Shown: positions 22,860-64,000 of the stretch, one piece after another | Layout: every line of letters starts with the position of its first letter | Position numbering within the stretch: position 1 is the stretch's first letter | Origin: Felis catus | Taxonomy: Eukaryota | Assembly: GCF_018350175.1 (NCBI RefSeq) | Contig: NC_058368.1 | Span: 87,298,001-87,362,000, forward strand | Direction: 5' to 3' | Length of the DNA stretch: 64,000 nucleotides | Position numbers and translations under genes: made by a program | The notes under the pieces: model-generated | Told to the model about the DNA's origin: nothing | The model's input: the letters and a program-made list of their open reading frames with translations, nothing else | The model's database searches: none

Positions 22860-23828
22860 TCACATCTCAGAGCCTAATCTGCAGAGCCTCCAGATCCTTG
22901 ACAGGAGCTTTCTCAGGGCTCCCTTTACATCCTTGTTCCTCAGAGTGTAGATAAAAGGATTGAGGGTGGGGGTGATTATGGAATAGAAGAGGGAGATAAA
23001 CTTGCCCTGTTCTTGGGAGTAGCTGGAAGAGGGTTGCAGGTACATGTAGATGGCTGGCAGGTAGAAGAGGGACACCACCACCAGGTGGGAGGAACAGGTC
23101 CCAAAGGCTTTGTGCCTTCCCCTGGAGGATTGGATCCTGAGCACTGTTCGGGCAATGAAGCCATAGGAGAAAAGGATGAGAGCTAGGGGAACCAGCACAA
23201 AGAAGGCTACCAGCACAGCCAGTGTGGTATCATTCATGGCTGTGTCAGCACATGACAACTTAATCATGGCTGGCACCTCACAGAAGAAGTTGTTCAGCAC
23301 CTGCCGCCCACAGAAAGGCAGCTGCACTGTCAGCACTACCTGAACAAGGGAGTTGCCAAAGCCACTGAGCCAGGCCACAGCCACGAGCTGTTGACAGAGA
23401 GGACGATGCATGATAACGGCATACCGGAGAGGCTCACAGATGGCCACATAGCGGTCCAGCGCCATAGCAGCCAAGACAATGCACTCAGTGCATCCCAACC
23501 AGTGGAAAATTGCATACTGCATTGTGCAGCCACCATAGCTGATGGTCTTACTGGAGCTCCCCATGTTGACCAGCATCTGAGGGACTGTGGTGGTGGTATA
23601 GCAGAGGTCGAGGAAGGATAGGTGCCCGAGAAAGATGTACATGGGGCTGTGGAGCTGAGAATCCAGTCGAGACACCAGGATGATAGCAATGTTCCCCAAC
23701 ATGGCCAGAATGTAGGACACCAGGAGGACCACAAAAAGAGGGAGCTCCAGCCATGGCCTGTCAGAAACACCTAGAAGGATGAAGTCTTTAGGGGGTTCCC
23801 GCAGAATGCTGTGGTTATGACCTCTCAT
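22860..23828 (-). CDS. OR2B11: Olfactory receptor 2B11 orthologue, intact, 322 aa
   Basis: MRGHNHS...FILLGVSDRPWLELPLFVVLL...LHSPMYIFL...YAIFHWLGCTECIVLAAMALDRYVAIC...QLPFCGRQVLNNFFCEVP...KAFGTCSSH...PTLNPFIYTLRNKD closely matches human OR2B11 as recalled; all canonical OR motifs intact; splice acceptor CAG at 23852-23850 just upstream of the ATG. Confidence 0.9.
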   Translation of the reverse strand: MRGHNHSILREPPKDFILLGVSDRPWLELPLFVVLLVSYILAMLGNIAIILVSRLDSQLHSPMYIFLGHLSFLDLCYTTTTVPQMLVNMGSSSKTISYGGCTMQYAIFHWLGCTECIVLAAMALDRYVAICEPLRYAVIMHRPLCQQLVAVAWLSGFGNSLVQVVLTVQLPFCGRQVLNNFFCEVPAMIKLSCADTAMNDTTLAVLVAFFVLVPLALILFSYGFIARTVLRIQSSRGRHKAFGTCSSHLVVVSLFYLPAIYMYLQPSSSYSQEQGKFISLFYSIITPTLNPFIYTLRNKDVKGALRKLLSRIWRLCRLGSEM

Positions 23829-24034
23829 GTTGAGGCATGTTTTTGGTGCCTGTGATGAGTCAAGAAAGTCAAAGTGAATAAAACCTGAGAGCATGAGATA
23901 ACTGTCTTCCTCATGCTTGTGCCTGAGCTTTCCTACAGACGTTGCATCCTGTCATCTCCATAGAGACACTGAGACATGGGGAAGTTGGGATCAGGAGGCA
24001 CAGCACATGCACATGGGTTTTGCTCTGCCTCCTA

Positions 24035-43200: not shown

Positions 43201-46145
43201 TTTCAAAAAACCAACTCTTGGTTTCGTTGATCTGCTCTACAGTTTTTTTTAGATTCTATATTGTTTATTTCTGCTCTGATCTTTATTATTCTCTTCTTCT
43301 GCTGGGTTTAGGCTGTCTTTGCAGTTCTGCTGCTATTTCCATTAGATGTGTTGTTAGATTTTGTATTTGGGATTTTTCTTGTTTCTTGAGATAGGCCTGG
43401 ATTGCAATGTATTTTCCTCTCAGGACTGCCTTCACTGCATCCCAAAGCGTTTGGATTGTTGTATTTTCATTTTCGTTTGTTTCCATATATTTTTTAATTT
43501 CTCTCTACTTGCCTGGTTGACCCACTCATCCTTTAGTAGGGTGTTCTTTAACCTCCATGCTTTTGGAGGTTTTCAAGACTTTTTCCTGTGGTTGATTTCA
43601 AACTTCATAGCATTGTGGTCTGAAAGTATGCATGGTATGATTTCAATTTCTGTATACCTCTGAAGGGCTGTTTTGTGACCCAGAATGTGATCTATCTTGG
43701 AACTTCCATGTGCACTCTAGAAGAAAGTATATTCTGTTGCTTTGGGATGCAGATTTCTAAATATATCTGTCAAGTCCATCTGATCCCATGTATCATTCAG
43801 GGCCCTTGTTTCTTTATTGACCGTGTGTCTAAATGATCTATCCATTTCTGTACGTGGGGTGTTAAAGTCCCCTGCAATTACCACATTCTTATCAATAAGG
43901 TTGCTTATGTTTGTGATTAATTGTTTTATATATTTGGGGGCTCCTGTATTCAGCGCATAGACATTTATAATTGTTCGCTCTTCTTGATGGATAGACCCTG
44001 TGATTATTCTATAATGTCCTTCTTCATCTCATGTTACAGCCTTTAATTTAAAGTCTAGTTTGTCTGATCGAAGTATGGCTACTCCAGCTCTCTTTTGACT
44101 TCCAGTAGCATGATAAATAGTTCTCCATCCCCTCACTCTCAATCTGAAGGTGTCCTCAGGTCTAAAATGAGTCTCTTGTAGACAGCAAATAGATGGGTCT
44201 TGTTTTTTTATCCATTCTGATACCCTATGTTTTTTGGGTGGTGCATTTAGTCCATTACGTTCAGAGTTATTATAGAAAGATATGGGTTTAGAGTCATTTT
44301 GATGTCTGTTGGTTTCATGCTTGTAGCAATGTCTCTGGTACTTTGTCTCACAGGATCCCCTAGGATCTCTTGTAGGACTGGTTTAGTGGTGACGAATTCC
44401 TTCAGTTTTTGTTTGTTTGGGAAGACCTTCATCTCTCCTTCTATTCTAAATGACAGACTTGCTGGATAAGGATTCTCAGCTGCATATTTTTTTGTTCATC
44501 ACATTGAAGATCTCCTGCCCTTCCTTTCTGGCCTGCTAAGTTTCAGTAGAGAGATCTGTCACAAGTCTTATAGGTCTCCTTTATATGTTAGAGCATGTTT
44601 ATCCCTCGCTGCTTTCAGAATTGTCTCTTTATCCTTGTATTTTGCCAGTGTCACTATGATATGTCGTGCAGAAGATCGATTCAAGTTACGTCTGATGGGA
44701 GTTTTCTGTACTTCTTGGATTTCAATGCCTTTTTCCTTCCCCAGATCAGGGAAGTTCCCAGCTATGATTTCTTCAAGTATACCTTCAGCACCTTTCCCTC
44801 TCTTCCTCCTCTGGAATACCAATTATGCACATATTATTGCATTTTATCACATCACTTAGTTCTCTAATTCTCCCCTCATACTCCTGGATTTTTTTATCTC
44901 TCTTTTTCTCAGCTTCCTCTTTTTTCATAATTTTATCTTCTAGTTCACCTATTCTCTCCTCTGCCTCTTTAATCGGAGCTGTGGTCGTTTCCATTTTATT
45001 TTGCAGCTCATTGATAGCATTTTTTAGCTCCTCCTGACTGTTCCTTAGTCCCTGTATCTCTGTAGCAAGAGATTCTCTGCTGTCCTCTATATTGTTTTCA
45101 AGCCCAGTGATTAATTTTATGACTATTATTCTAAATTCACCTTCTGTTATATTGTTTAAATCCTTTTTGATCAGTTCGTTAGCTGTTGTTATTTCCTGGA
45201 GATTCTTTTGAGGAGAATTCTTCTGTTTTGTCATTTTGGAAAGAACTGCAGGGCACTTACCCTGTGCTGTCTTGAATAATTTGCATTGGTGGGTGGGGCT
45301 GCAGTCAGACCTGATGTCTGCCCCCAGCCCACCGCTGGGGCCACAGTCAGACTGGTGTGTATCTTCTCTTCCCCTTCTAGGGGCGGGTTTCACTGTGGGG
45401 TGGTGTGGCCTCTCTGGGCTACTTGCACACTGCCAGGCTTGTGGTGCTGGGGATCTGGCATATTAGCTGGGGTGGATCAGTAAGATGCATGGGGGTAAGA
45501 GGGGCAGGCTCAGCTCGCTTATCCTTCAGTGATCCGCTTCAGGAGGGGCCCTGGGGCTCCAGGAGGAAGTCAGACCCATCGCCAGAGGGACGGATCCATA
45601 GAAGCACAGCGTCGGGTGTTTGCGGGGTGCAAGCAAGTTCCCTGGGAGAAACTGGTTCCTTTTGGGATTTTGGCTGGGGGATGGGTGAGGGAGATGGTGC
45701 TGGTGAGTGCCTTTGTTCCCCACTGAGCTGAGCTCTGTCGTCCAGGGCTCAACAACTCTCCCTCTCATTGTCCTCCAGCCTTCCCACTCTCCAAGCAGAG
45801 CTGTTAACTTATAACCTTCCAGATGTTAAGTCCCGCTCGCTGGCCAAACACACTCCATCTGGCCCCTCCACTTTTGCAAGCCAGACTCGGGGTCTCTGCT
45901 TGGCTGGCGGACTGCGCCTCCACCCCGGCTCCCTCCCCCCAGTCCATGTAGTGCACACCGCCTCTCCACCCTTCCTACCCTCTTCCGTGGGCCTCTTCTC
46001 TGTGCTTGGCTCCAGAGAATCCATTCTGCTAGTCTTCTGGCGGTTTTCTGGGTTATTCAGGCAGGTGTAGGTGGAATCTAAGTGATCAGCAGGATGCGGT
46101 GAGCCCAGCGTCCTCCTATGCTGCCATCTTCCCCTCCATCTGGGC
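40237..46145 (-). mobile_element. Full-length young L1 (copy 3), inactivated
   Basis: GGGGAAGATGG 5' end ~46134; ORF1 ATG 45234; ORF2 44297-40476 disrupted; TSD TGTTTA(G/A)CTGTT at 40225-40236 and 46146-46157. Confidence 0.95.
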
Positions 46146-46464
46146 TGTTTAACTGTTAATGAAAGAAAAAAATGAAGGATTGCTTCAGAGGGAAAAGCGT
46201 CTCAAAAATTAAATTTGATTTATAAGGTCATTTTCAGGTTACCCAAACAGGAAAAACCAAATGGGGAAAAAATTAGAGTTTTATAACATAAGATTTGAGA
46301 ATGAAGAAATATAAGCTAAAGAAATTTAAAGACTCAAGATTTTTAAAAGGACAAAAAGAGAGTAAGAGGCTAGTATAAAATCAAATAATGCTCTTTAAGA
46401 GAGATATATTGTGCCAGACAGATTGTGATGACAGATTTTCATTTATGTTTGTGAAACACTATAT

Positions 46465-46650
46465 TTTTTTATTTTTTAAATTTATTTTATTTTCTTTAAA
46501 TGTTTATTTTTGAGAGAGAGAAAGAGAAAGTATACAAGCAGGGGCAGGAGAAGAGAAAGAGGGAGACAGAGGATCTAAAACAGGCTCTGGTGACAGCAGG
46601 GCTCAAACCCATGAACTGTGAGATCATGACCTGAGCCAAAGTCAAACGCC
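46465..46650 (-). mobile_element. 5'-truncated CanSINE
   Basis: T tail, (GA)n, GAGATCATGACCTGAGCCAAAGTC; head missing. Confidence 0.85.
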
Positions 46651-46984
46651 ACACACCACAAGGAAGATTTGCTCATCGAGTAGCTGTTATCTTCCAGATA
46701 ATGTTGTTTTCACAGTTCCTACGATTAGGACCACAAAGCTTCCATCCTGTCTCATCCCTCATTCTAAAGTTAAATGATTAAAATTCCCAAAGGCTGCATG
46801 AGTATTCCAAAGAAACTGAACAACCATGTTTGAGAGATACTGAGGGAGGTATGCTTCAACTTTCCAATGTTTTTTCCCCCAAAAGGCATCTGAGAGCTCA
46901 GAAGCCAAGTTAGGACTTTGAGAACAAAAATGATTTTGTCTGTCAGCTACTTCCTATAAACACATCCAGTGGGAAGTATGCCAG

Positions 46985-47385
46985 TCACTTTGTGGGACTG
47001 AAGGACAGAGGACTTTCTCCACCTAGTTTCTCTGTTTCATCTGTGTCTCTAAGCTTCCTCAACAAGGCTGCTTCACCCTGGCTGCAGCGACTGACTTCCA
47101 TTTCCACACCTGCAGAACCAGCCTTTTCTACCCCTTAAGGACAGCACCAGCCACCCAGAACAGCGCTCCCTTCCCAGAGGCTAGGACTCAGCTCCCCAGG
47201 GGCCTCCTCCAAACATCCAAGTTCTAATAAAGCCAACTACCTGTTTGCTGCAGTCACTGTCCCCATGAAAGCTTTGTGTTGTTTTTCTCTTTTCAGAGAG
47301 CCAATCCCTAACATTTTTATGTTAAATTCCTTCCATTAAAACAACAGTATAGTTTCTGTCACATGGCTGTGTTCTTACTGATATA
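46985..47385 (+). mobile_element. Possible degraded ERVL LTR (LTR33-like)
   Basis: Terminal pattern TTAAATTCC...GTTTCTGTC...TTACTGATATA; weak. Confidence 0.3.
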
Positions 47386-48261
47386 CCTGTATGTTTTTTA
47401 GTGTTAATATCACTGCTCTGAATTATCAAAAGGTACGACTCTTACCTGAACTCTTTAATTAGAATATGTAACATAGTTTCAGGTGCAGAAAGATGCTTAA
47501 TAAAAATGAGTTCACAGTAACACAGACATTCTTGGACCTGAGGAATCAATAATAAAACAGTAAAACTGTGGATTGCAAGTATCTTATTCTGTGAGTGTTC
47601 CAGAAGATGAGCAAACATTGCTAATAAATTTTAACTTGATAAACAAAGGATGTCTTGCAATACAAACAGTACATGACACGGAATGTCACAGGATCACAAC
47701 GGAGCCAGTGGTTCTTGAAATTCGCTTTGATATACAAGTGCTTTGGATGACAAGCATGTTTCCAGAGCGAATTATGCATGCAAGCCAAGGTTTTACTGTA
47801 ATTCCTAAAATGAGGCTTGCGTGTCTGTTAAGGTAATTCCTGATACAGCTAAGCAACACATCATGAAGTTGAAAACAGGTACCTTCTGCCCATTTATGGT
47901 CACAGAACTAAGTTTTCTATCCTGGGAGGTAGGGTTCCAGGGACTCCATTCCAAAGTAAGTCCTCTAATCCACAGAGAATGCTATCCAGTAGAATGGAAA
48001 CTGAAATTGGGCCTTTAACCCATGACCCTATTTCTGACACTTACCCCTCAAAGATGATGGAAGAAGAAAGAGAAGAAAATAGACTTCACTCTATTCTAGG
48101 CCTGCTCTAAATGCAACAGTAACCCTTTTAAATCTCAAAGTAGCAAAATGAGACAGATATAATTATTATCTGCATTTTTATATATAATGGAAATTTGAGT
48201 GACTTACTCATGGTAACACAGTGAGTGAAGCATTTGGGACCCTACATACTTGCTGGCCAAT

Positions 48262-49028
48262 TGTTCACCCCTAATAATGTGTTCAATAATCCAGCCCAAT
48301 GTTGACACTAACTCTGGAGTTACCACAGAGCCTGTAGGTGTAAGGGTCTCAGTCCCACAAGACATCCCCCCACTTCAGATGCCAGCTGAGAGTCTCAGAG
48401 GCCACCCACAATTTTTGCATGATTTAGCTGTAAATTCTGGCTTTCCCACAACCCATCCTTAGGTTTGATGATTTGCTAAAAGAACTCACACAACCCACAG
48501 AAAAGTGTTATGCTTATGAGTACCATTTTTTTATAAAGGATACAACTCAGAAACAGCCAAACGGGAGAGATGCATAGAGCAAGGTTCAGCTTCAGGATGG
48601 AGGATGCAGACCCTCCATGTCCCATCCCTAAGGAGCAGGTGCATCACCTTCCCAGCACATCATGTGGGGACCTCTGCCAAGACTCAGTGTCCTGAGTCTG
48701 ATGGGGAGTTGATCACATAGGCATGATTGATTAATTCACTGACTTGTGACTGGCTCTCCTCCAGCCCCTCACCCCTCTTCAGAGGTAGGGGATAAGGCAG
48801 AAAGTTTGGTCTAATCACATGCTTATCTTTCTGGTAGGGACAGCCCCCCCCCCCCTTAAAACTACACAAGGACCCACAGTAAGTTACATTAGCATAAACC
48901 CAGGTATGGTTGAAAGGGGTTTTTAATGAACAACAAAAGACACTCTTCTCACTCAGGAAATCTGAAACGTTTTTGAAGTTCTGTGCCAAACACTAGAGAT
49001 AAAGACTAAATATTTTTATTATACCACA
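48262..49028 (-). mobile_element. MER21-like ERVL LTR
   Basis: GGTTTGATGATTTGCTAAAAGAACTCACA...TTATAAAGGATACAACTCAG...GAGATGCATAGAGCAAGG...ATTATACCACA (minus-strand start TGTGGTAT). Confidence 0.7.
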
Positions 49029-49620
49029 GACCCTGACTACAGAAGGCTCCTCTTACACATTACAAGGTCTTGAAATAAAGAGGACCAGAAGGTATGAAAG
49101 GAATGAGAGGGGGCAAATCCAACCACAGGGAAATAAAGAGCATCCCTTTGGGACCCAACCTATACCTGCCTAGAGCATGAGAGCTACACCTGGGACAAAC
49201 TAGCACAGGTGCCAAAAACAGAGGGGAGGAGGAGACAGTCATCCATCCGTGGACTTCCAGGCCATGAGGCTCCAGTGAGTAGCATGTCACAATGTTCCTA
49301 CTGAAGAAAATGTCAACACCTGAGCTGAGAGGCTTGGAGTAAATCCTAGGAGCTCAAAGGTCTCCAAGAAATAAATCTCTCACCCCTTTAGGCAGGGATT
49401 CACATCTGTCTGTGGCTGGACTCCAACAATCCAGAAGACTCAAGGGCCTTGGTTGTTTCCATCCTGATGCTCAGCTCCCACTGGGCACGGACTGGCAAGA
49501 AATCTGTAATCCATGCTTTCTCCAGAGGTCCTGGCAGACCTGAGGTCTCAAGTGCCCACCTCATGCTCAGGAGGTTTACACTCTGTGGCCACTCTGTTGC
49601 TCCAATTAGAAAGGTAAATA

Positions 49621-49823
49621 GGGGGCGTCTGGGGGGGGGGGCGGGGCTCAGTCAGCTGAGCATCCGACTTTAGCTCAAGTCATGACCTCATGGTTTGTGA
49701 GTTCGACCCTCATGTCAGGCTCTAGACTGACAGTTCAGAACATGGAGCCTGCTTCAGATTCTGTGTCTCCATCTCTCTCTGCCTCTCTCTCTGTCTCAAA
49801 AATGAATAAACATTAAAAAAAAA
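49621..49823 (+). mobile_element. CanSINE with poly-G expansion in the head
   Basis: TSD AAAGGT(A/G)AAT; G run at 49631-49641. Confidence 0.9.
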
Positions 49824-49975
49824 TAAAGGTGAATGGAATTTGCAGAGAGGGAGGCTGAGGATACATATTGGGGCTGCCAACTTCCTAGATTTCCTCCCCT
49901 CCTCCCCCAGCTCCACCTGCCTGGGCTCTTCATGCCAGACTTGCAAGGCACCACCCTCTCCTCTCTTGAGATTAT

Positions 49976-50072
49976 ATTTTTTTAAGTAAGCTCTACGCCC
50001 AACATGGGGCTTGAACTCATGTCTCCAAGATCAAGAGTTGGATGCTCTCCTGACCAAACAGACAGGAACCCC
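49976..50072 (-). mobile_element. Short CanSINE variant
   Basis: TTTTAAGTAAGCTCTACGCCCAACATGGGGCTTGAACTC...; TSD AGATTATA. Confidence 0.75.
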
Positions 50073-50208
50073 TAGATTATAATTTTTAATGGTGAAAAAA
50101 AAGAAAGTAGCGTTTCTTAAAAAAAAATAATAATAAAATGATACAATCAACTCCCACACTGACACTTTGTGCTGTTCTTAATTATTAGCAATTTTTTGCA
50201 GTTGTCAG

Positions 50209-50433
50209 ATTTTTTTTTAATTTTTTAAAAGTTTTTATTTATTTTGAAGGAGACAGAGAGAGCATGTGGGGGGGGGGGTGGTACAGAGAGACAGGAAGAC
50301 ACAGAATTCAAAGCAGGCTCCAGGCTCTAAGCTGTCAGAACAGAGCCCGATGCAGGGCTTGAACTCACGAACCATGAGATCATGACCTGAGCTGAAGTCG
50401 GATGCTTAACTGACTGAGCCACACAGGCACCCC
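50209..50433 (-). mobile_element. CanSINE
   Basis: Antisense body ending GAGCCACACAGGCACCCC. Confidence 0.92.
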
Positions 50434-50477
50434 AGAATTCTTTTTTAATTTTCAGAAATACATTAGCTGTATTGCTT

Positions 50478-50929
50478 TGTTTCAATTTTTTATTTAAATT
50501 CCATTTAGTTAACATACAGTGTATTATTATTTGCAGGAATAGAATTTAGTGATTCATCACTTACATATAACACCCAGTGCTCGTCCCAACCTGTGCCCTC
50601 CTTAAGGTCCTCCATTCTTTTAGCCCATCCCCTGGCCACCTACCCTTCAGCAATCCTCAGTTTACTCTGCATTTAAGAGTCTCTTACAGTTTGTTTTTTT
50701 TTTTATTAAATTTTTTTTTCAACGTTTATTTATTTTTGGGACAGAGAGAGACAGAGCATGAACGGGGGAGGGGCAGAGAGAGAGGGAGACACAGAATTGG
50801 AAACAGGCTCCAGGCTCTGAGCCATCAGCCCAGAGCCCGATGCGGGGCTTGAACTCACGGACCGTGAGATCGTGACCTGGCTGAAGTCGGACGCTTAACC
50901 GACTGCGCCACCCAGTCTCTTACAGTTTG
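50478..50929 (-). mobile_element. Old L1 3' end fragment split by a SINE
   Basis: TTAGTTAACATACAGTG...GATTCATCACTTACATATAACACCCAGTGCTC. Confidence 0.85.
50694..50913 (-). mobile_element. Very young CanSINE (GGCGCAGTCGG / CAGCCAGG / GGGCTGATGG type)
   Basis: CpG-rich, long T tail, perfect 16-bp TSD AGTCTCTTACAGTTTG at 50678-50693 and 50914-50929; first ~9 nt missing. Confidence 0.95.
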
Positions 50930-51359
50930 AAGAAGTAGTGTTTTATAGAAGAACTGGAAGAAAAATGGAGCAAGCTACCACCATCACTGCTGACATGTAG
51001 ATTCTAGGAAGGTGAACTTCTATTAGAGTAAGAGGCAGGAGAGCCAGGCCGGGTGTGGCCAGTGAGACCCACTCTCAGTGCAGGCACTGGACGCATGGAG
51101 TGCTCAGCTTCACTCTGGGACCAAACCACCGCATGTCTGAGCATAATAACTGTGGGAACAGGTCTAGTTGGACAGCCCTGACTTTATACAAACTCCTAGT
51201 CTCTTTTACCCTTACCTGCTCTTCCTACACTTAATGATAATTCTACTTCCTATCGCCCAGGCAATGAGGTTACTTTCTTGACCTTCTATTTGGTTTATTG
51301 GTTTATTCACACCCATTCACCAGGGTATTTCTATTTTTGCACCAATATCACCACGGTAT

Positions 51360-51870
51360 TTTTTCTGGTTTTCTTGAGAGTAACTGACATATAACATTCA
51401 TTGTATAACTTTAAGGTATATAACATAACAATTTGATATATGTATATATTTCAAAATGATTACAATAAGAATAATTAATAAGCAACACCACACATATTTA
51501 TAATTTTTCCTTATGATGAGGACTTTTAAGATCTACTCTTAGGGGCGCCTGGGTGGCTCAGTCGGTTAAGCGGCCGACTTCGGCTCAGGTCATGATCTCA
51601 CGGTCTGTGAGTTCGAGCCCCGTGTCGGCTCTGTGCTGACAGCTCAGAGCCTGGAGCCTGTTTCAGATTCTGTGTCTCCCTCTCTCTGACCCTACCCCGT
51701 TCATGCTCTGTCTCTCTCTGTCTCAAAAATAAATAAATGTTAAAAAAAATCTACTCTTAACCACTTTCATATATGCAATATAGTATCATTAACTGTAGTC
51801 CCCATATTGTATATTACATCCCTCAAACTGATTTATCTATACGTTCAAGTTTGCACCTTGTGATCACTAC
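51360..51870 (-). mobile_element. Ancient L1M-type 3' end split by a SINE
   Basis: TAACTGACATATAACATT...TTTAAGATCTACTCTTA...CATTAACTGTAGTC...TACATCCC. Confidence 0.7.
51542..51749 (+). mobile_element. Young CanSINE
   Basis: Near-consensus; TSD ATCTACTCTTA on both sides. Confidence 0.95.
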
Positions 51871-51959
51871 CTTTTAATGGGTATGGCCTCATAAAAGTTG
51901 TAACATCTGGCATGGAAAATCTCCTTGGGTGTTTTTCCCCTTTAAAAGTGTCTCTACTT

Positions 51960-52168
51960 GGGGGCGACTGGGTGGTTCCGTAGGTTAGGCATCCAACTTC
52001 AGCTCAGGTCATGATCTTGTGATTCATGAGTTTGAGCCCCACCTCAAGCTCTCTGCTGCCAGCTCAGAGCCGGGATCCAGCTTTGGATTCTGTGTCTCCC
52101 TTACCTCTTCCCCTCCCCTGCTTGCACTCTGTCCCTATCTCAAAAAATAAATAAACATTAAAAAAATG
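51960..52168 (+). mobile_element. CanSINE
   Basis: TSD AAAGTGTCTCTAC on both sides. Confidence 0.93.
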
Positions 52169-52226
52169 TTAAAGTGTCTCTACCTGAATCCTTTCACATG
52201 TATATGTATTTCAAAACATCAAGTTG

Positions 52227-55200
52227 TAAAAGGGAACCAGTTCACATCATGGAACTTGCTTGCACCGTGCAAACACCCAATACTGTGCTTCTGTGGATCC
52301 ATCCCTCCAATGGGTCTGCCTCCCTCCCAGTGCTGAAGGGCACCTCCCATAATGCACCACTCAAAGCAGAGAGCTGAGCCTGCCTCTCCCACCCTGTGCA
52401 CCTTGCAGACCCACCCTGGCTAACATGCCAGATCCCATCAAAGCAGCACCACAAGAGTGGCAGTCTGCAAGTAGCCCAGACAGGGTCCAACCACCCCACA
52501 GTGAGTCCTGCCCCTGGGAGAGGGAAAGATAAGGTACACACCAGTCTGACGGTGGCCCCAGCAGTGGGCTGGGGAGAGACATCAGGTCTGACTGCGGCCC
52601 CACTCCCCGGCACAAGTTACTCCAGACAGCATGGGGGAAGAGCCTTGCAGTTCCCTGCCACTCCAGGGACTACCAAAATAAAGAAACGGAAGAATTCTCC
52701 TCAAAAGAAACTCCAGGAAGTAGCGACAGCTAATGAACTGATCGAAACAATTTAACCAATGTAAAAGAAAATGAATTTAAAATAATAGTCATCAAATTAA
52801 TCACTAGCTTTGAAAAAAGTATAGAGGGCAGCAGAGAATCTATTACTACAGAGATCAAGGGACTAAGAAACAGTCAGGAGGAGCTAAAATATGCTACAAA
52901 TGAGCTGCAAAATAAAAAGGAGGCAACCACAGCTTGGATTGAAGAGGCAGAAGAGAGTATAGGTGAATTAGAAGATAAAATTATGGAAAAAGAAGAAGCT
53001 GAGAAAAAGAGAGATAAAAAAAAATCCAGGAGTATGAGGGGAGAATTAGAGAACTAAGTGACAATATTAAACGAAATAATATACACATAATTGGGATTCC
53101 AGAGGAGGAAGAAGGAGGGAAAGGTGCTGAAGGTGTACTTGAAGAAATCATAGCTGAGAACTTCCCTGATCTGGGGAAGGAAAAAGGCATTGAAATCCAA
53201 GAAGTACAGAGAACTCCCTTCAGACATAACTTGAATCGATCTTCTGCATGACATGTCACAGTGAAACTGGCAAAATAAAAGGATAAAGAGAAAATTCAGA
53301 GAGCCGCTAGAGATAAGCATGCTCTAACATATAAAGGCAGACCGATAAGACTAGTGACAGATCTATCTACTGAAACTTGGCAGGCCAGAAAGGAATGGCA
53401 GGAAATCTTCAATGTGATGAACAGAAAAAAAATATGCAACCAAGGTCCTTTATCCAGCAAGTCTGTCATTCAGAATAGAAGGACAGATAAAGGTCTTCCC
53501 AAACAAACAAAAACTGAAGAAATTCATCACCACTAAACCAGCCCTACAAGAGATCCTAAGGGGGATCCTGTGAGACAAAGTACAAGAGACATCAATGCAA
53601 GTATGAAACCTACAGACATCACAAGGACTCTAAACCCATATCTTTCTATAATAACATTGAATGTAAATGGGTTAAATGTTCCAACCAAAAGACATAGGGT
53701 ATCCGAGTAGATAAAAAAACAAACCCATCTATTTGCTGTCTACAAGACACTCATTTTAGAACTGAGGAAACCTTCAGATTCAAAGTGAGGTAATGGAGAA
53801 CTATCTGTCATGCTACTGAAAGTCAAAAGAAAGCTGGAGTAGCCATAGTTATATCAGACAAACTAGACTTTAAATTAAAGGTTGTAACAAGAGATGAAGA
53901 AGGGCATTATAGAATAATCACAGGGTCTAGCCATCAGGAAGAGCTAACAATTATAACCGTCTATGTGCCAAACACAGGAGCCCCCAAATATATAAAACAA
54001 TTAATCACAAACATGAGTGACCTTATTGATAAGAATGCGGTAATTGCAGGGGACTTTAATACCCCACTTACAACAATGGATAGATCATCTAGAAACACGG
54101 TCAATAAAGAAACAAGGGCCCTGAATGATACATTGGATCAGATGGAGTTGACAGACATATTTAGAACTCTGCATCCCAAAGCAACAGAATATACTTTCTT
54201 CTCAAGTGCACATGGAACCTTCTCCAGGATAGATCACATACTGGGTCACAAAACAGCCCTTCATAAGTATGCAAGAATTGAGATCATACCATGCACACAT
54301 TCAGACCAAAATGCTATGAGCTTGAAAAATAACCACAGGAAAAAGTCTGGAAAACCTCCAAAAGCATGGAGGTTAAAGAACACCCTACTAAAGAATGAGT
54401 GGGTCAACCAGGCAATTAGAGAAGAAATTAAGAAATATATGGAAACAAATGAAAATAAAAATACAACAATCCAAATGCTGTGGGATGCAGCGAAGGTAGT
54501 CCTGAGAGGAAAATACATTGCAATCCAAGCCTATCTCAAGAAACAAGAAAAATCCCAAATACAAAATCTAACAGCACACCTAAAGGAAATAAAAGCAGAA
54601 CAGGAAAGACACCTCAAATACACCAGAAGAAGAGAAATAATTAAGATCAGAGCAGAAGTAAACACTATAGAATCTAAAAAAATTGTAGAGCAGATCAACG
54701 AAACCAAGAGTTGTTTTTTAGAAAAAATAAACAAAATGGATAACCCTCTAGCCAGGCTTCTCAAAAATAAAAGGGGGATGACCCAAATAGATAAAATCAT
54801 GAATGAAAATGGAATTACTGCAACCAATCCCTCAGAGATACAAACAATTATCAGGGGATACTATAAAAAATTATATGCCAACAAACTGGACATCCTGGAA
54901 GAAACAGACACATTCTGAAACACCCGCACACTCCCAAAACTCAATCAGGAGTAAATAGAAAGCTTGAACAGACCCATAACTAGCATAGAAATTGAATCAC
55001 TTATCAAAAATGTCCCAACAAATAAGAGTCCAGTATCAGATGGCTTCCCAGGGGAATTCTACAAGACATTTAAAGCAGAAATAATACTTATCCTTCTCAA
55101 GCTATTCCAAAAAATAGAGGGGAAGGAATACTTTCAGATGCATTCTATGAAGCCAGCATCACCTTGGTTCTCAAACCAGACAGAGACCCAGTAAAAAAAG

Positions 55201-57732
55201 AGAACTAAAGGCCAATATCCCTGATGAATATACATGCAAAATTCTCAATAAGATACTAGCAAATGAAATTCAACAACATATAAAAAGTATTATTCACCAT
55301 GATCAAATGGGATTCATTCCTGGGATACAGGGCTGCCTTAAAATTTCCAAATCAATCAATGTGATACATCACATTAATAAAAGAAAGGATAAGAACCATA
55401 TGATCCTGTCAATTGATGCAGACAAAGCATTTGACAAAATTCAGCATCTTTCCTTAATAAAACCCCTCGAGAAAGTCGGGATAGTTAAACTTAATAAAAG
55501 CCATTTATGAAAAGCCCACAGCTAACATCATCCTCAATGGGGAAAAACTGAGAGCTTTTTCCCTGAGATCAGGAACACGACAGGGATGCCCACTCTCATT
55601 GCTGTTGTTTAACATAGTGTTGGAAGTCCTAGCATCAGCAATCAGAAAACAAAAGGAAATCAAAGGCATCAAAATTGGCAAAGATGAAGTCAAGCTTTCA
55701 CTTTTTGCAGGTGACATGATACTACACATGGAAAATCCGATAGACTCCACCAAAAGTCTGCTAGAACTGATACATGAATTCAGCAAAGTTGCAGGATACA
55801 AAATTAACGTACAGAAATCAGCTGCATTCTTATACACTAACAATGAAGCAACAGAAAGACAAATAAAGAAACTGACCCCATTCACAATTGCACCAAGAAG
55901 CATAAAATACCTAGGAATAAATCTAACCAAAGATGTAAAAGATCTGTATGCTGAAAACTATAGAAAGCTTATGAAGGTAATTAAAGAAGATATAAAGAAA
56001 TGGAAAGACATTCCATGCTCATGGATTGGAAGAATAAGTATTGTCAAAATGTCAATACTACCCAAAGCTATCTACACATTCAATGCAATCCCAATCAAAA
56101 TTGCACCAGCATTCTTCTCGAACCTAGAACAAGCAATCCTAAAATTTGTATGGACCCACAAAAGGCCCTGAATAGCCAAAGCAATTTTGAAAAAGAAGAC
56201 CAAAGCAGGAGGCATCACAATCCCAGACTTCAGCCTCTACTCCAAAGCTGTAATCACCAAGACAGCATGGTATTGGCACAAAAACAGACACATAGACCAA
56301 TGGAATAGAATAGAAACCCCAGAACTAGACCCACAAAAGGATTGCCAACTAATCTTTGACAAAGCAGGAAAGAATATCCAATGGAAAAAAGACAGTCTCT
56401 TTAACAAATGGTGCTGGGAGAAGTGGACAGCAACATGTAGAAGGATGAAACTAGACCACTTTCTTACACCATTCACAAAAACAAACTCAAAATGGATAAA
56501 GGACATGAATGTGAGACAGGAAACCATCAGAACCCTAGAGGAAAAAGCAGTAAAAAACCTATCTGACCTCAGCCGCAGCAATTTCTTACGTGACACATCC
56601 CCAAAGGCAAGGGAATTAAAAGCAAAAATGAACTATTGGGACCTCATGAAGATAAAAAGCTTCTGCACTCCAAAAGAAACAATCAACAAAACTGAAAGGC
56701 AACTAACAGAATCAGAAAAGATATTTGCAAATGACATATCAGACAAAGGGCTAGTATCCAAAATCTGTAAAGAGCTCACCAAACTCCACACCTGAAAAAC
56801 AAATAATCCAGCGAAGAAATGGACAGAATACATGAATAGACCCTTCTGTAAAGAAGATATCCAGATGGGCAACAGGCACATGAAAACATGCTCAATGTTG
56901 CTCCTCATCAGGGAATTACAAATCAAAACCACACTCAGATATCACCTCACGCCAGTCAGAGTCCCCAAATTAACCAATCAGGAGACTATAGATGCTGGCG
57001 AGGATCTGGAGAATTGGGAACCTTCTTGCACCTTTGGCGGGAATGCAAATTGGTGCAGCCGCTCTGGAAAACAGTGTGGAGGTTCCTCAAAAAATTAAAA
57101 ATAGATCTACCCTATGACCCAGCAATAGCACTGCTAGGAATTTACCCAAGGTATACAGGAGTGCTGAAGCATAGGGGCACTTGTCCCCCAATGTTTATAG
57201 CAGCACTCTCAACAATAGCTAAATTATAAAAAAAGCCTAAATGTCCATCAACTGACCAATGGATAAAGAAATTGTGGTTTATATACACAATGGAATACTA
57301 AGTGGCAATGAGAAAGAATGAAATATGGCCTCTTGTAGCAACGTGGAGGAAACTGGAGAGTGTTATGCTAAGTGAAATAAGTCATACAGAGAAAGACAGA
57401 TACCATATGTTTTCACTCTTATGTGGATCCTGAGAAACTTAACAGAAGTCCATGGGGGACGGGAAGGGAAAAAAAAGAGGTTAGAGTGGGAGAGAGCCAA
57501 AGCATAAGAGACTCTTAAAAACTGAAAACAAACTGAGGGTTGATGGGGGGTGGGAGGGAGGGGAGGGTGGGTGATGGGTATTGAAGAGGGCATCTTTTTG
57601 GATGAGCACTGGGTGTTGTATGGAAACCAATTTGACAATAAATTTCATATATTAATAAGTAAATAAATAAATAAAACAGAGTCACTAGGTAAAAAAATAA
57701 AAAAATAATAAAATAATAATAAATAAATAAAA
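52227..57732 (+). mobile_element. Near-full-length young L1 (copy 4), truncated in the 5'UTR, inactivated
   Basis: Starts mid-5'UTR (AAAGGGAACCAG); ORF1 start ATG>ATA (52678), ORF2 start ATG>AGG (53624); RT FADD>FAGD; ORF2 end 57433; bipartite A-rich tail; no clear TSD. Confidence 0.95.
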
Positions 57733-58134
57733 GGCAAAGTGATATTCTCAATTGCTAACGGACCTGAGATAAAACTTATAAAATACTTTTATCTTTTAAG
57801 AACACAGTGTTGCCCCACTAGCATAATGTGGTTTTTGGTTGTTATCCTTTTTTTTTTTTTTTTGTCTTTGTGCTAATAAGGAGAAGATTGTAAAAACCCA
57901 AGGATTAATTTGCTCGCCTTAATGATTTCAAGTCTTTCATTTTCTCCTCACCTTTAGGAAAAACAATTAAGTAACTGATTAATTTAAAAAATCTATATAT
58001 TTCAGTTTTCATGTGACCTTAAGAACACACATAAAACCATGACAGTGACTATTGCAGGGACATACTACATATACAACTTAGTATTACAAATTTTCTTCTA
58101 TAAGCACATAAAAAATTTAGAATAAATAACCTAT

Positions 58135-58337
58135 GGGGAGCCTGAGTGACTCAGTCAGTTAAGCATCTGACTCTTGGTTTAGGCTCAGGTCATGATCTCA
58201 TGGTTCATGGGACTGAGACCCACATTGGGCTCTGCACTGACAGTGCAGAACTTGCATGGAGTTCTCTCCCTCTATCTCTCTGCCCCTCCCCCACTCTGTC
58301 TTTCTCAAAAATACATGAATAAACATTAAAAAATAAA
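58135..58337 (+). mobile_element. CanSINE
   Basis: GGGGAGCCTGAGTGACTCAG head; imperfect TSD AGAATA..TAAC.TAT. Confidence 0.9.
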
Positions 58338-58631
58338 GAATAGGTAACATATTTAAAAAAATCCTTTCCTCTGGACCTCAAAGTCTTTTCTGAGCATCTT
58401 TGTCTCTTGTCCATGAGGAAAAAAACCCACTGCATTCTGAATCCAAACAGCTCATCAGAGGAAAGCATGAGAATGGGAACCAGACTGAGCAGAAGACTTC
58501 AAAGACCAATAGAATTTGTTGAGCCTTCCATTGACAGAATTAGATTATGAACAAAAAAAGTCTAATTTTGGCAGATTGAAAGACAGGAGAGAAATCCTTC
58601 GTGGTGTGCCCCCGTGGGTCCACCATCTCTA

Positions 58632-58651
58632 ATGGCTCAGAGCAGTTGCAG
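58632..58651 (+). CDS. Candidate upstream coding mini-exon A (MAQSSC+AG) of the OR at 63859-64000
   Basis: ATG 58632, open to a perfect donor CAG|GTAAGT at 58651/58652, phase 2, matching the phase of the acceptor at 63858. Confidence 0.35.
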
Positions 58652-58875
58652 GTAAGTGCTGAGGTGACTGAGAACTCACCACAGAAGACATTCAGATGAA
58701 AGGCTAATTTCCATCTGAGATGAGGTCCCAGTGGCCTTATTAGTCTTAGCAAGCTGAGTCTTTCTGGGATAGGCAGGACATTTCCAGGGCACTGGTTGCT
58801 GTGATCTCTCCATGATTCTGTGCACCAAGATGTTAATAAAAGCAGGTCTTTAAATCTAAGCCCCTTTCAACAACT

Positions 58876-58889
58876 ATGGTATTCTGGAG
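58876..58889 (+). CDS. Candidate upstream coding mini-exon B (MVFW+AG) of the OR at 63859-64000
   Basis: Strong Kozak ACTATGG, donor GAG|GTAAGT at 58889/58890, phase 2. Confidence 0.4.
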
Positions 58890-60829
58890 GTAAGTCATTT
58901 ACCCCACTGATCAAGTCGTGATCAAGCCTGGACTGAAATACCATACCATAAAATCCTATGAAAAAAGGCAGTGGGAACCTCACGGATGTCTTTGGGAATG
59001 GCTATGACTGAGAGGCTGAAAGGGAAAGGAATATATTCCAAGCACAAACTCAAAAGAGACTGAGATTAGTGTGTGTGTTCTCCCTAGTCAATCTCTGGAT
59101 TTTCAGAAACTTCAGAAATCCACATCTTCAGTTAAGGGTAGTGTATTTTGGTATTTGCATTGAGTTTCCAATGCCAGGCACTCGCCACAGTGGCTCAACA
59201 TCTAGCTGAGCCATTTGTAAGAGAATATAGATAACTGTCACATGAGAATGAAAATGGAATTAGGCATGAAATTAGATAAATACAACTGAAAAAGTAAGAT
59301 TCATTTATTTCATTATTAATAGTTAATATCAATTTAATTAATATACTAATTTAATTAATATATTAATGATTTTAAATATTAGTAGCAAAAACAGAAAAAA
59401 ACTTCAGCAGGAATGCATTGGTGATACAAAATGAAAATTGTTGACAATTCAAGTATTTAGGTGCAGATGGGGAGAGAAATGTTAACTGTATTAAATGATT
59501 ATGTAGCAGCCAAAAGAATATTTTCCTAAATTCCAAGTTGCTGGTGTAAAACTAATTTCTGTAAAACCTTGCAGGTAGCAGACGCAATGATGTTCGGATC
59601 ATCAGAATTGCTGGAGGCAGTGGGGGGAATGTGGGAGCCAATGTATGTGCATGTGGACAGGCCCGATGAGGTCAGCAAAGGAAAACCAGGGAACTGTCAG
59701 AAATTAGAGAACAACCAAAGATCTCTGTGCAGGGTGCAATGGGGGACCTAGTTTTATCATGAATCCATAATATCCAACACAGAAACACTTCTTAGTCCCC
59801 CAGAATGTGCACAAAGTCCAGGTGACACATTGTTCTTTCCTCAGTGGGTACTCCTTTTGTTGTTACTCTGCTCTGTTTTAGATTTGTCTGGCTTGCCCAA
59901 ATGTATACCTAGATTCTCCAGTGTTCATCACCATCTGTAACCACAACTTTCTTTAGGCTCTGACTGGTGTTTTACCTGAATTATCAAGACTGGACAGGTA
60001 AAACAGATGGGTCAGGAAAGGCAAGTGTAGGAACCAGTTTCCTGAGGAGGAACCACAGAGCCATTGCCTTGGGGTATTGGCAGAGTTGAGGTCCAGAGCA
60101 CAGACTGTGGGACCACACAGTGCTGGTTGCATAGGAAGGACTTGCAATGAATGGAGAGAGTGTCTGTAGCCTACTCTAACACAGCTTGCACAAACAACAT
60201 CAGTAGCATAAATTCCAGTAGTGATAATATCTCATATGAGCAGAGATTGTCACACAGGGTCACAGAACACCAAAGGAAGTGACATAGTCAGCAGTGTTTT
60301 ATAAGCAGTTTGAAAATGTCCCTGGGACACTTTTGATATTTAATCACACAAGAAGTCGAGATGTGTAGACATGTATTATTAGGAAAAACCACAGCCAACT
60401 TATGGAGTGAGGGCCAAATGAGACAAATATGTATGCTAAATTAATATGCTTTAAGTTCAACTGGTCTAGGCTTTTCCAGGTGTGGGAAGAGAGCTGCTAA
60501 GTGGCTGTTTGTTTCCACCCTCTGTCACAAAAAGGAGAACACTGAGCATGCAACGTCATAAAATATATCATTAGCTCTCAAATGTATGGTGGTTTCATCA
60601 GTGATCAATGAAAATATCACTTAATGACACATTAGATGTCAAATTCTGCTCTAGAAAAAGGCAGATGTGACTCAGGATAAGTACAGAAGTCGACTTTTTT
60701 TTTTTCCAGAGAGAAAACATAAATTTCAACCTAAAACAACTTAAGCAGAAACTCAACTTGATTCTAAAAACAAAAGGGTAGAAAAATCAAACGATGCTAG
60801 TGTCAAAAGAATAACAGAGATAGGTGGGT

Positions 60830-61185
60830 TTTTGTCCAGTTTATTAAGATATAATTGATATAAATCACAGTATAAATTTTAACTGTACAGCATAATGGTT
60901 TGACTTACATATATTATGAAATCTTTATGTCCCTTACTGAGATAGATACAATTAAAAGCAAAAAAAGAAAAAGAAAAAAAAAAGTTTTCCTTTTGATGAG
61001 AACCCTTAGGGTCTACTCTCTTAGCAAAGTTCATATACATTATAGAGCAGTGTTATCTATAGGCATCATTTATATATTACATCCTTTACTTATTTTATAA
61101 CTGGAAGTGGGTAACTTTTGACCACCTTCCTGCAGTTCACCTTACCCCCTACCACAAACCTGTTGTAATTACAAATCTGATCCCT
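60830..61185 (-). mobile_element. Ancient L1M-type 3' end
   Basis: TTTATTAAGATATAATTGA...GAGAACCCTTAGGGTCTACTCTCTTAGCAA...ATAACTGGAAGT. Confidence 0.7.
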
Positions 61186-61411
61186 CCCCCCCCCCCCGAT
61201 TCTGCTTTTAATTAATTCTGAAACAGAGTGTCATAGAAATCTGAACACTAAAATTACGCTAGATTTTTTGTGTGTATTATGCACAAGATTATTTTGAGTT
61301 CTAATTTCCTCATTTACATGGGGGTGTAACGATAAAGCTCAAGAACTAGATTTTAAGGAAATTCATTTCCAGCTCTAGTTCTCCACTCCAAATAACATGA
61401 TTTCAATACTG

Positions 61412-61637
61412 ATTTTTATCTTTTTTAAATTTTCTTAATGTTTATTTATTTTTGACAGAGAGAGACAGAGCATGAGTTCGGGAGGGGCAGAGAGAGAGGG
61501 AGACACAGAATCTGAAACAGGCTCCAGGCTCAGAGCTGTCAGCACAGAGCCTGATGCGGGGTTCCAACTCATGGACAGTGAGATCATGACCTGAGCCAAA
61601 GTCAGACACTCAACCAACTGAGCCAACCAGGAGCCCC
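61412..61637 (-). mobile_element. CanSINE
   Basis: Antisense body ending CCAGGAGCCCC; TSD TCAATACTG. Confidence 0.92.
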
Positions 61638-61767
61638 TCAATACTGCTTTTTAAAAAATAAAAGTGCATATTTAAAAAAACTTCCTTTTCAAATTTAAAT
61701 CTTGTACTTTGAACAGTATATCATTAAGGCAATCATTTCCTTTAACATGAAATGACATATCCTACAT

Positions 61768-62790
61768 TCGTAGGGTAATTCTGTTTTTAATTTGGGGGGA
61801 AACCTCCGTACTATTTTCCAGAGTGGCTGCACCAGTCTGCATTCCACCAACAGTGCAAAACGTTTCCCCTTTCTCTGCACCCTCACTACCATTTATAGTT
61901 TCCTGAGTTGTTAATTTGAGCCATTCTGACAGCGGTGAGATGGTATCTCATTGTGGTTTTGATTTCTGTTTCCCTGACGGTGAGTGATGTTGAGCATCTT
62001 TTTATGTCTCTATTAGCCATCTCTATGTATTCTTTGGAAAAGTGTCTATTCATGTCTTTTGTCCCTTTCTTCACTGGATTATTTGTTTTTTAGGTGTTGA
62101 GTTTGATAAGTTCTTTATAGATTAAGGATATTAACCCGTTATCTAATATTTCATTTGCAAATATCTTTTCCCATTCTGTCAGTTGCCTTTTAGTTTTGTT
62201 GATTGTTTATTTTGCTGTATTGCAACATTATTTATAATAGCCAACATATTGGAGAAATCCAAATGTCCATTGATAAGTGAATGGGTAAGAAAGATGTTAT
62301 ACAATAGAATATCATCCCGTCATCTTAAAAAGATGAGATAGTGCCATTTGTGACAACATGGATGGACCTAGAGTGTGTTATGCTAAGTGAAATAAGTCAG
62401 ACTGAGAAAGACAAATACCAATGATTTCATTCATGTATGGAATATAAAAAGAAAAAAAAGAAAAAATAAACAAAAAGCAGAATCAGATATATAGGTACAC
62501 AGAACAAACTAACGCTAAAAGGGATGCTAAAAGGGAAGAGGGTGGGAGGATAGGTAAAATGGGTAAAAGAGAGTGGAAAATACAGGCTTCCAGTTATGGA
62601 ATGAAGAAGTCATGAACATAAAAGGCACAGCACAGGGAACATAGTCAATGATATTGTAATAGTGATGTATGGAGACAGATAGTGGTTACAATTGTTCTGA
62701 GCATTGCATAATGTATAAACCTGTTGAATTATTCTGTTGTACACCTGACACTAATGTGACTATACTCAACAATGTCAATGATACTCAGAC
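61768..62790 (+). mobile_element. Old L1 3' end with 5' inversion (antisense 61768-62218, sense 62219-62790)
   Basis: Orientation switch at ~62219; the two parts are nearly adjacent in the L1 ORF2 C-terminal region. Confidence 0.7.
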
Positions 62791-62809
62791 TTTTTAAGGA
62801 GTTTTCATC

Positions 62810-63402
62810 ATTAACAGATACTGAATTTTTTCAAGTATTTATTCCACATTTATTAAAATAATAATATACTTTTTTTTTCTTTTATTGTATTTATGTTGTA
62901 TGTATTAATTGAGTTGCATATATTGAACCATCCTTGCATCCCAAGGATAAGTCCCACATTGATCGTGGGGCATGATGCTTTCAATGGGCTGCTGAATTCA
63001 GTGTGCTAGCATTTTACTGAGAATGTTTGCACCTATATTCATCACGGATATTGGTCTGCAGTTTTCTTTTCTGCTGGTGTCCTTATCTGGATTTTGTATT
63101 AAGGTAATACTGCCCTTTTTAAATGAGTTTGGCAGTGTTCCTTCCTCTGATTTTTTTGGAAGAGTTTGAGGTTTGGTGTTATTTCTTTTAAATATTTGGT
63201 AAAATTCACCAGTGAAGACATCTGGTCCTAGGCTTTTCTTTATTGGGAGATTTTTTTTATTACTGATTCAGTCTGTATAATAGTAATTGATCTATTCAGA
63301 TTTTCTATGTCTTCCTGATTCAGTTTTGGTAGTTTGTATGTTTCTCAAATTTTTCTCCATTATATCTAGGCTGTGCAGTTTGTTGCCATAAGTTGTTCAT
63401 AG
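62810..63402 (-). mobile_element. Ancient L1 ORF2 fragment
   Basis: TTGAACCATCCTTGCATCCC...TCTGGTCCTAGGCTTTTC...TTGTTCATAG antisense ORF2 sequence. Confidence 0.85.
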
Positions 63403-63418
63403 TGGCAAAGGTTAGTTT

Positions 63419-63618
63419 TATTTTTTTAAGTTGATTTATTTATTTTGAGAGAGAGCATGAGCAGAGGACAGGCAGAGGGAGAAGGAAAGAGAAAGAATCC
63501 CAAGAAGGCTCCATGCTCAGTGCAGAGCCCTACACAGGGCTCAATCTCCTGAAACTGTGAGATCATGACCTAAGTCAAAATCAACAGACACTTAACCGAC
63601 TGAACCACTCAGGCACAC
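63419..63618 (-). mobile_element. CanSINE
   Basis: TSD TGGCAA(A/G)GGTTAGTTT at 63403-63418 and 63619-63634. Confidence 0.92.
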
Positions 63619-63858
63619 TGGCAAGGGTTAGTTTAAAAGAATGACCTACCACAATCTCATGTTCTAGGAGTTTGCTAGAATCATCCACCTTTGAAGAAAT
63701 TAACAGATGAAAATGTCCAAAAAGGGACAGAGATGAAAGAACAGCCAGTAAAAGTTTACAGAAAATATTAATAGAGAAAGGGTGATGTTCTAAAATCAAA
63801 TATCATCTTTCTCTACCTCTTTTAGGTGGTGTTCTAACTGATGTGTTGTTCCTTGTAG

Positions 63859-64000
63859 ATTCAGGTGGGCGCTGGATAGACATGCTAATGGCACTGTCCC
63901 AGATGGCTTCATTCTCTTGGGCTTCTCGGATAACCCTAGGCTAGAAATGACCCTATTTATGGCGGTTTCTGTCTTTTACACAGTCACACTAGTGGGCAAC
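63859..64000 (+). CDS. 5' part of an olfactory receptor coding exon (OR2W-like), cut off by the window end; no ATG before the N-glycosylation site
   Basis: Hand translation from 63872: LDRHANGTVPDGFILLGFSDNPRLEMTLFMAVSVFYTVTLVGN (NGT site, FILLGFS, TM1 GN); branch point CTAAC and acceptor TTGTTCCTTGTAG ending at 63858; absent from the ORF track. Confidence 0.85.

Follow-up and report, generated by a model that had tools for sequence, protein, structure and literature searches.

The 64,000-nt stretch of the domestic cat genome analysed here (Felis catus, NC_058368.1, positions 87,298,001 to 87,362,000 of the forward strand; hereafter the window) ends within the main exon of an olfactory receptor (OR) gene, which by its sequence is the felid orthologue of dog and cattle OR2H10. 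This exon has no in-frame start codon before the first transmembrane helix (TM1). We hold with good confidence that OR2H10 is an intact felid gene whose translation most likely starts about 5 kb upstream, at ATG 58876, in a separate exon predicted to be spliced to the AG ending at 63858 or 63864. The product would most likely have 324 or 322 residues and keep its N-glycosylation site, and the gene is likely functional. The frame is intact, the donor and the acceptors are in place, the orthology is clear and the segment before Met 63947 is conserved. The features on which the argument draws are as follows.

58632 to 58657, plus strand: ATG 58632 and donor 1 (exon end 58651, GTAAGT at 58652-58657), the best-scoring donor
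58876 to 58889, plus strand: coding end of the upstream exon (ATG, three codons and 2 nt, phase 2), the likely true start
58890 to 58895, plus strand: donor 2, GTAAGT, ranking second among 901 GT sites in 44000-63850
58890 to 63858, plus strand: predicted intron of 4,969 nt
63803 to 63825, plus strand: third acceptor, AG 63824-63825, in the same phase, overlooked by the earlier sequence-only reading
63834 to 63864, plus strand: branch-point-like CTAAC (63834-63838) and tandem acceptors in the same phase, AG 63857-63858 and AG 63863-63864
63859 to 64000, plus strand: start of the OR2H10 coding exon, the frame continuing past the window to window-equivalent 64819
63876 to 63884, plus strand: putative relic in-exon start ATA GAC ATG (I-D-M; ancestral M-D-M), one base out of frame
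63882 to 63944, plus strand: 20-codon open reading frame (ORF), out of frame, that begins at the relic ATG and stops 2 nt short of ATG 63947
63947 to 63949, plus strand: ATG where TM1 begins, the start in 290-residue database models, unlikely to be the true one

Every feature listed by the sequence-only reading, which had proposed a receptor with its start codon supplied from upstream, was found again at its coordinate when the sequence was re-read. ATG 58632 and ATG 58876, both in phase 2, precede the exon ends at 58651 and 58889, and GTAAGT follows each end. Downstream, the in-frame TGA (63839-63841), the two tandem AGs, the CTG at 63872 and a first in-frame ATG (63947) that lies after the NGT glycosylation site were likewise as described. 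The frame, for which the sequence-only reading had asked whether it stays open for about 310 codons, runs for 319 codons from 63860, above the 300 residues expected of an intact OR, and ends with TGA at window-equivalent 64817-64819.

The translated exon carries the N-glycosylation sequon NGT at residue 10 (63887-63895) and all of the OR motifs LHxPMY, MAxDRYxAxCxPLxY, CxSH and PxLNPxIYxLRN, and it scored 172 bits with the Pfam model 7tm_4 (cut-off 27). AlphaFold, run on a 28-row alignment, returned seven long helices at a low mean pLDDT of 53, and simple hydropathy gave five peaks above threshold. Orthologues were collected across placentals from protein searches and cluster listings, in which the dog and cattle records carry the name OR2H10. 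The tree was built from 49 rows, one per chosen species or paralogue from the larger set, with long N-termini trimmed. It mirrors the species tree (Xenarthra, Afrotheria, Euarchonta, Laurasiatheria), with the laurasiatherian clade at 97/92 and the orthogroup at 100/99, and places the window row beside felid, meerkat and hyena rows; body identity is 87% to dog and 83% to cattle OR2H10. P0093, picked as outgroup, is a chimeric model joining a neighbour's N-terminus to an OR2H10 body. The tables of Olender 2020 (PMC7160942) give the name OR2H10 for dog and cow only, both intact at 290 residues, and list no human or mouse gene so named; the only other close sequence in the supplements is the horse pseudogene OR2H22P.

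To score donors, a donor matrix was applied to the GT sites of the 20 kb upstream. The donor 8-mer AGGTAAGT occurs three times on the plus and once on the minus strand in 223 kb, close to the 4.3 per strand (0.12 per 6 kb) expected from composition. Two of the three plus-strand copies stand 238 nt apart, 5 kb before the OR exon, and are the best two of the 901 sites. Since a phase-2 ATG within seven codons is present at 11% of random positions, a single donor accompanied by one carries limited weight alone. ATG 58876 lies in a strong Kozak context (A at -3, G at +4), and in silico splicing from it via 58889 gave an open frame of 324 or 322 residues with the first or second tandem acceptor, respectively. 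The first register is found in ruminant, meerkat and hyena models, the second in camel and shrew models. Within the 223-kb region 58340-61400 is single-copy, and 61400-63620 contains SINE and old LINE-1-like pieces; a search of the cat's own genome for paralogous copies of the OR exon or of the upstream region returned one match each, the query itself. One old LINE-1-like piece in the intron, at 62965-63063, has been taken into the dog gene model P0061 as its N-terminus; the insertion is therefore older than the cat-dog split, and it misleads gene predictors.

The start of OR2H10 was then surveyed in 88 laurasiatherian protein records, 7 of which are partial and a few chimeric or fragmentary. 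Ten records (9 taxa, 3 orders) open with MV[SF]W or M[SP]W and continue with R or S, in register with the 58876-58889 piece of the window: meerkat, hyena, deer, cattle, a Bos hybrid, Bactrian camel and three shrew species, one of them in two versions. Because a model can use an exon only if the genome has it, these records support the presence of the exon in those genomes, and from them we infer its use across carnivores, artiodactyls and shrews. Other, unrelated upstream exons proposed in felid models (30883 with 59575-59641; 24952 with 25620) were set aside as ab initio, since none recurs across orders.

Several points weigh against a start at ATG 58876. The ten records in its favour were produced automatically and may go back to a single seed model, and for deer and camel newer versions gave up this start for 290/292-residue models. 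Of the 88 records, 41 have the TM1 Met as their first residue, and 30 show other, mutually unrelated N-termini. The acceptor with the best pyrimidine tract is AG 63824-63825 (14/15 vs 10/15), and splicing to it brings in TGA 63839, so that a peptide of only 9-11 residues results; the strongest acceptor is thus non-productive. No reads matching 58340-59280 came from two raw RNA runs, of which 1-2% each was read and whose tissue is unknown. The same region gave 0 and 1 non-informative contigs in two further runs, of 24 runs, none labelled olfactory. An intact horse, bat or pangolin orthologue was not found, and the horse copy is a pseudogene. A degenerate pattern of the mini-exon had 20 matches in metagenome contigs, of which 0/20 were homologous beyond the pattern itself.

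Similar stretches, ggtgatgttctaa (63781-63797) and ggtggtgttctaa (63826-63842), stand before the two acceptor regions, and their likeness hints that the extra acceptor was born by a short local duplication.

According to the sequence-only reading both donors might end coding first exons, giving a possibly functional gene with two alternative N-termini. The first half of this proposal has stood, in that the frame is intact and the start most likely comes via 58889, with ten records from three orders alike; the second N-terminus has found no support. Donor 58651 has the top score, its product is open (326 or 324 residues from ATG 58632 with the first or second tandem acceptor), and an O/E-like motif at 58610, matching a consensus, could mark a promoter, although it is not enriched (17% of shuffles). 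Set against this, ATG 58632 has a weaker Kozak context (C at -3), a phase-2 ATG within seven codons occurs at 11% of positions, and an N-terminus of this type occurs in no stored protein; the last is a weak test because stored proteins are gene models. That the 58651 product is a real isoform is therefore unlikely in our view, and 58632-58657 is more likely the end of a 5' untranslated region (UTR) exon, or an alternative first exon, than coding, a coding role being unsupported. Among the promoter motifs sought in 58350-58889 (O/E and homeodomain, both by consensus), none was enriched except bare TAAT, with 7 occurrences vs 2.8, reached in 1% of 300 shuffles; as one of three patterns tried, it is not used as evidence.

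The database view, in which the protein is a 290-residue form starting at ATG 63947, is represented by the 41 records mentioned above, including the curated dog and cattle OR2H10 entries, and by the cat record. This form would be without the N-terminal glycosylation site, and loss of the equivalent site in M71 is reported to abolish axon guidance in vivo (PMC4626089). For the 27 residues before Met 63947 and for the body, respectively, identity is 85-100% and 82-98% in carnivores, 78-83% and 83-86% in artiodactyls, and 63-70% and 81-88% in eulipotyphlans. Of 24 laurasiatherian rows, four have R or I in place of this Met, namely those of meerkat, hyena and two Prionailurus. A start at 63947 is very improbable because in carnivores the conservation of the preceding segment about equals that of the body, and in artiodactyls it comes near to it, and because the Met is missing in those four rows and a 20-codon out-of-frame ORF ends 2 nt ahead of it. 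Cat, dog and cattle OR2H10 are thus likely catalogued 32-34 residues short, without their glycosylated N-terminus, and cloning from these records would likely give a receptor that does not traffic. Repertoire pipelines that look first for an ATG would mis-handle OR2H10 throughout a superorder. Against the expectation that automated pipelines would call the gene start-less or a pseudogene, they do not call it a pseudogene: dog and cattle OR2H10 are listed as intact, and the meerkat and hyena models are already split.

Simple start loss, in which the gene would be a young pseudogene with its upstream ATG and donor there by chance, we find barely credible. For it speak that RNA was not seen in the runs sampled (no real test), that OR2H10 of the horse is a pseudogene and that the records of two sea lions are cut short; against it, the frame is intact and 81-98% identical across three orders that have the start loss in common. 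The sea-lion records P0002 and P0133 stop right after TM7, and horse OR2H22P carries frameshifts (PMC7160942). OR2H10 has thus decayed independently in some lineages.

A start at the near-cognate CTG 63872 would give a receptor of normal length without any upstream coding exon. The codon has a good context (G at -3 and +4), most laurasiatherian rows have Leu there, and such a start would account for the conservation from 63872 onwards. It would leave the recurring MV[SF]W/M[SP]W in three orders unexplained, and the three out-of-frame ATGs just downstream would catch leaky ribosomes; moreover, two mole rows have Pro for Leu. We consider this start improbable. The sequence-only reading had overlooked these three ATGs (63882, 63888 and 63903) and had taken CTG 63872 for the decayed ATG of the receptor. 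This is not supported, since outgroups start with M-D-M within the exon and a putative relic of that start lies out of frame at 63876-63884; CTG 63872 is probably not the old start.

In all 25 outgroup (non-laurasiatherian) rows an in-exon Met stands 2 or 4 residues ahead of the glycosylated Asn, as M-D-M in 12 of them. When the four residues before this Asn were read with a shift of one base, 23 of 23 assessable laurasiatherian rows showed 0-3 mismatches to M-D-M codons, and all 7 assessable artiodactyl rows showed none; in outgroups the same reading gave 5-7 mismatches in 22 of 22 assessable rows. A match with at most one mismatch occurs at 1 of 316 4-mers of this protein, the site itself, and a null set of six ORs gave 5 such matches, of which 2 are the orthologous sites themselves. 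For the window DNA, deletion of 1 nt requires 1 substitution, compared with 3 when ATG-to-CTG and a 3-nt insertion are assumed; for artiodactyls the figures are 0-1 vs 3-4.

These comparisons argue that the present start probably originated from an in-exon M-D-M start through a single-base deletion in the laurasiatherian stem. In the ancestral placental gene translation would have begun at M-D-M within the exon. A 1-nt deletion just after the second ATG would have put both old ATGs out of frame and, by the same step, brought an upstream-exon ATG into frame, one that was already there or appeared shortly afterwards. In this way a 5' UTR intron already in place would have become a coding intron. 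The upstream ATG thus likely rescued the frameshifted start with no intron gained. In carnivores the first relic ATG would later have changed to ATA. Scanning ribosomes would reach the strong upstream ATG first, so that the out-of-frame relic ATGs are bypassed. The full scenario, in which loss of a base at the root of Laurasiatheria both disabled M-D-M and made a formerly out-of-frame ATG of a 5' UTR exon the start, kept since in carnivores, artiodactyls and shrews, we judge slightly better than even.

The same split gene could also have arisen differently. The upstream ATG may already have been in frame in the placental or boreoeutherian ancestor, as the start of an N-terminally extended isoform, and the in-exon start may have been lost later by ATG-to-CTG at 63872 together with a 3-nt net insertion. 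The lemur row, W-V-L-D-M-D-N, speaks for this history and against a single-base deletion. Its L-D-M-D-N is one substitution from M-D-M-D-N, with W-V ahead in frame, whereas the deletion history has to add a 4-nt deletion of its own for lemur. Some genes have a single-exon as well as a split isoform (Barnes 2020, PMC7055050). The cost is higher, however: besides the insertion, the window requires 3 substitutions and artiodactyls require 3-4, where the loss of one base would leave 1 and 0-1, respectively. The out-of-frame ATA-GAC-ATG is moreover left as a coincidence. We consider this history doubtful. If the deletion history is true, a split OR can come about without intron insertion, through capture of an upstream ORF, the dead start being still readable in another frame, and the birth of a split OR by frameshift rescue becomes datable, to the root of Laurasiatheria. 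In the mole paralogue P0090 a Met stands in frame six residues ahead of the glycosylated Asn, likely through a change of GTG to ATG, and this paralogue may have regained a single-exon start.

Split ORs are known as an uncommon layout, to which OR2H10 likely adds a member, as judged from its sequence. Barnes et al. 2020 (PMC7055050) describe split ORs, 13 of them human and 41 mouse, as intron insertions, with Olfr1174-ps/OR5D3P, Olfr94/OR2I1P and Olfr735/OR4Q3 as examples of class 1. OR2H10 resembles class 1 in that its predicted start lies in the adjacent upstream exon, no in-exon ATG gives more than 300 residues (63947 gives 290), the upstream ATG is in frame, a GT-AG junction falls in the extracellular N-terminus (at sequence level only) and the predicted product has 322-324 residues. 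The intron would follow codon 4, where the cases reported mostly lie at codons 1-16, and its 4,969 nt fall inside the range given, 550-22,628 nt (PMC7055050). As to a second conserved start like that of class 2, no record resembles the 58651 product (a weak test).

Differences from these published cases are also evident. The Barnes loci are supported by RNA, with at least 3 reads over the junction in olfactory mucosa given as the criterion (PMC7055050), whereas the split of OR2H10 is predicted here from genomic sequence and predicted models. Conservation of start Met and junction in mammalian orthologues, another of their criteria, shows for OR2H10 at the level of predicted proteins, in the same 10 of 88 records. 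OR2H10 is not among the split ORs that they list (PMC7055050). This survey, the sole curated one found, treats split ORs as intron insertions, while OR2H10 would keep a trace of another route, a frameshift with a 5' UTR exon recruited. The dog and cattle orthologues (NP_001375734.1, NP_001376917.1), one-to-one by the tree, are catalogued as intact single-exon genes of 290 residues from the TM1 Met (PMC7160942) and are probably 32-34 residues short. Four models of 324 residues, XP_029797597.1 (meerkat), XP_077632065.1 (hyena), DAA27613.1 (cattle) and XP_020759411.1 (deer), have the same upstream-exon N-terminus as the cat gene; they are predictions only, some later withdrawn for 290-residue models. 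In the open-access literature we found no paper on the split start of OR2H10, nor any discussing the split automated models.

Neighbouring genes were recorded as well. The database models P0079, P0083, P0093 and P0095 (lynx, wolverine, reindeer and goat) are chimeric, with neighbouring ORs of the cluster fused. An intact OR on the minus strand at 22860-23951, which we take to be OR2B11-like, is 56% identical to OR2H10 of the window. A long exon of PYD-linker/NACHT type, presumably NLRP3-like, lies on the minus strand at window-equivalent 122441-124357, 58 kb downstream of OR2H10. The OR at 22860-23951 is about 100 kb from this gene and on the same strand; human OR2B11 is adjacent and opposite to NLRP3, and a local inversion or extra genes are possible. 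On the plus strand, 2224-3156 holds an open OR frame of about 310 residues. Its tree branch is long and its conserved motifs deviate in places, with one residue missing before CEVP and RRN in place of LRN; it is possibly a relaxed gene or a young pseudogene.

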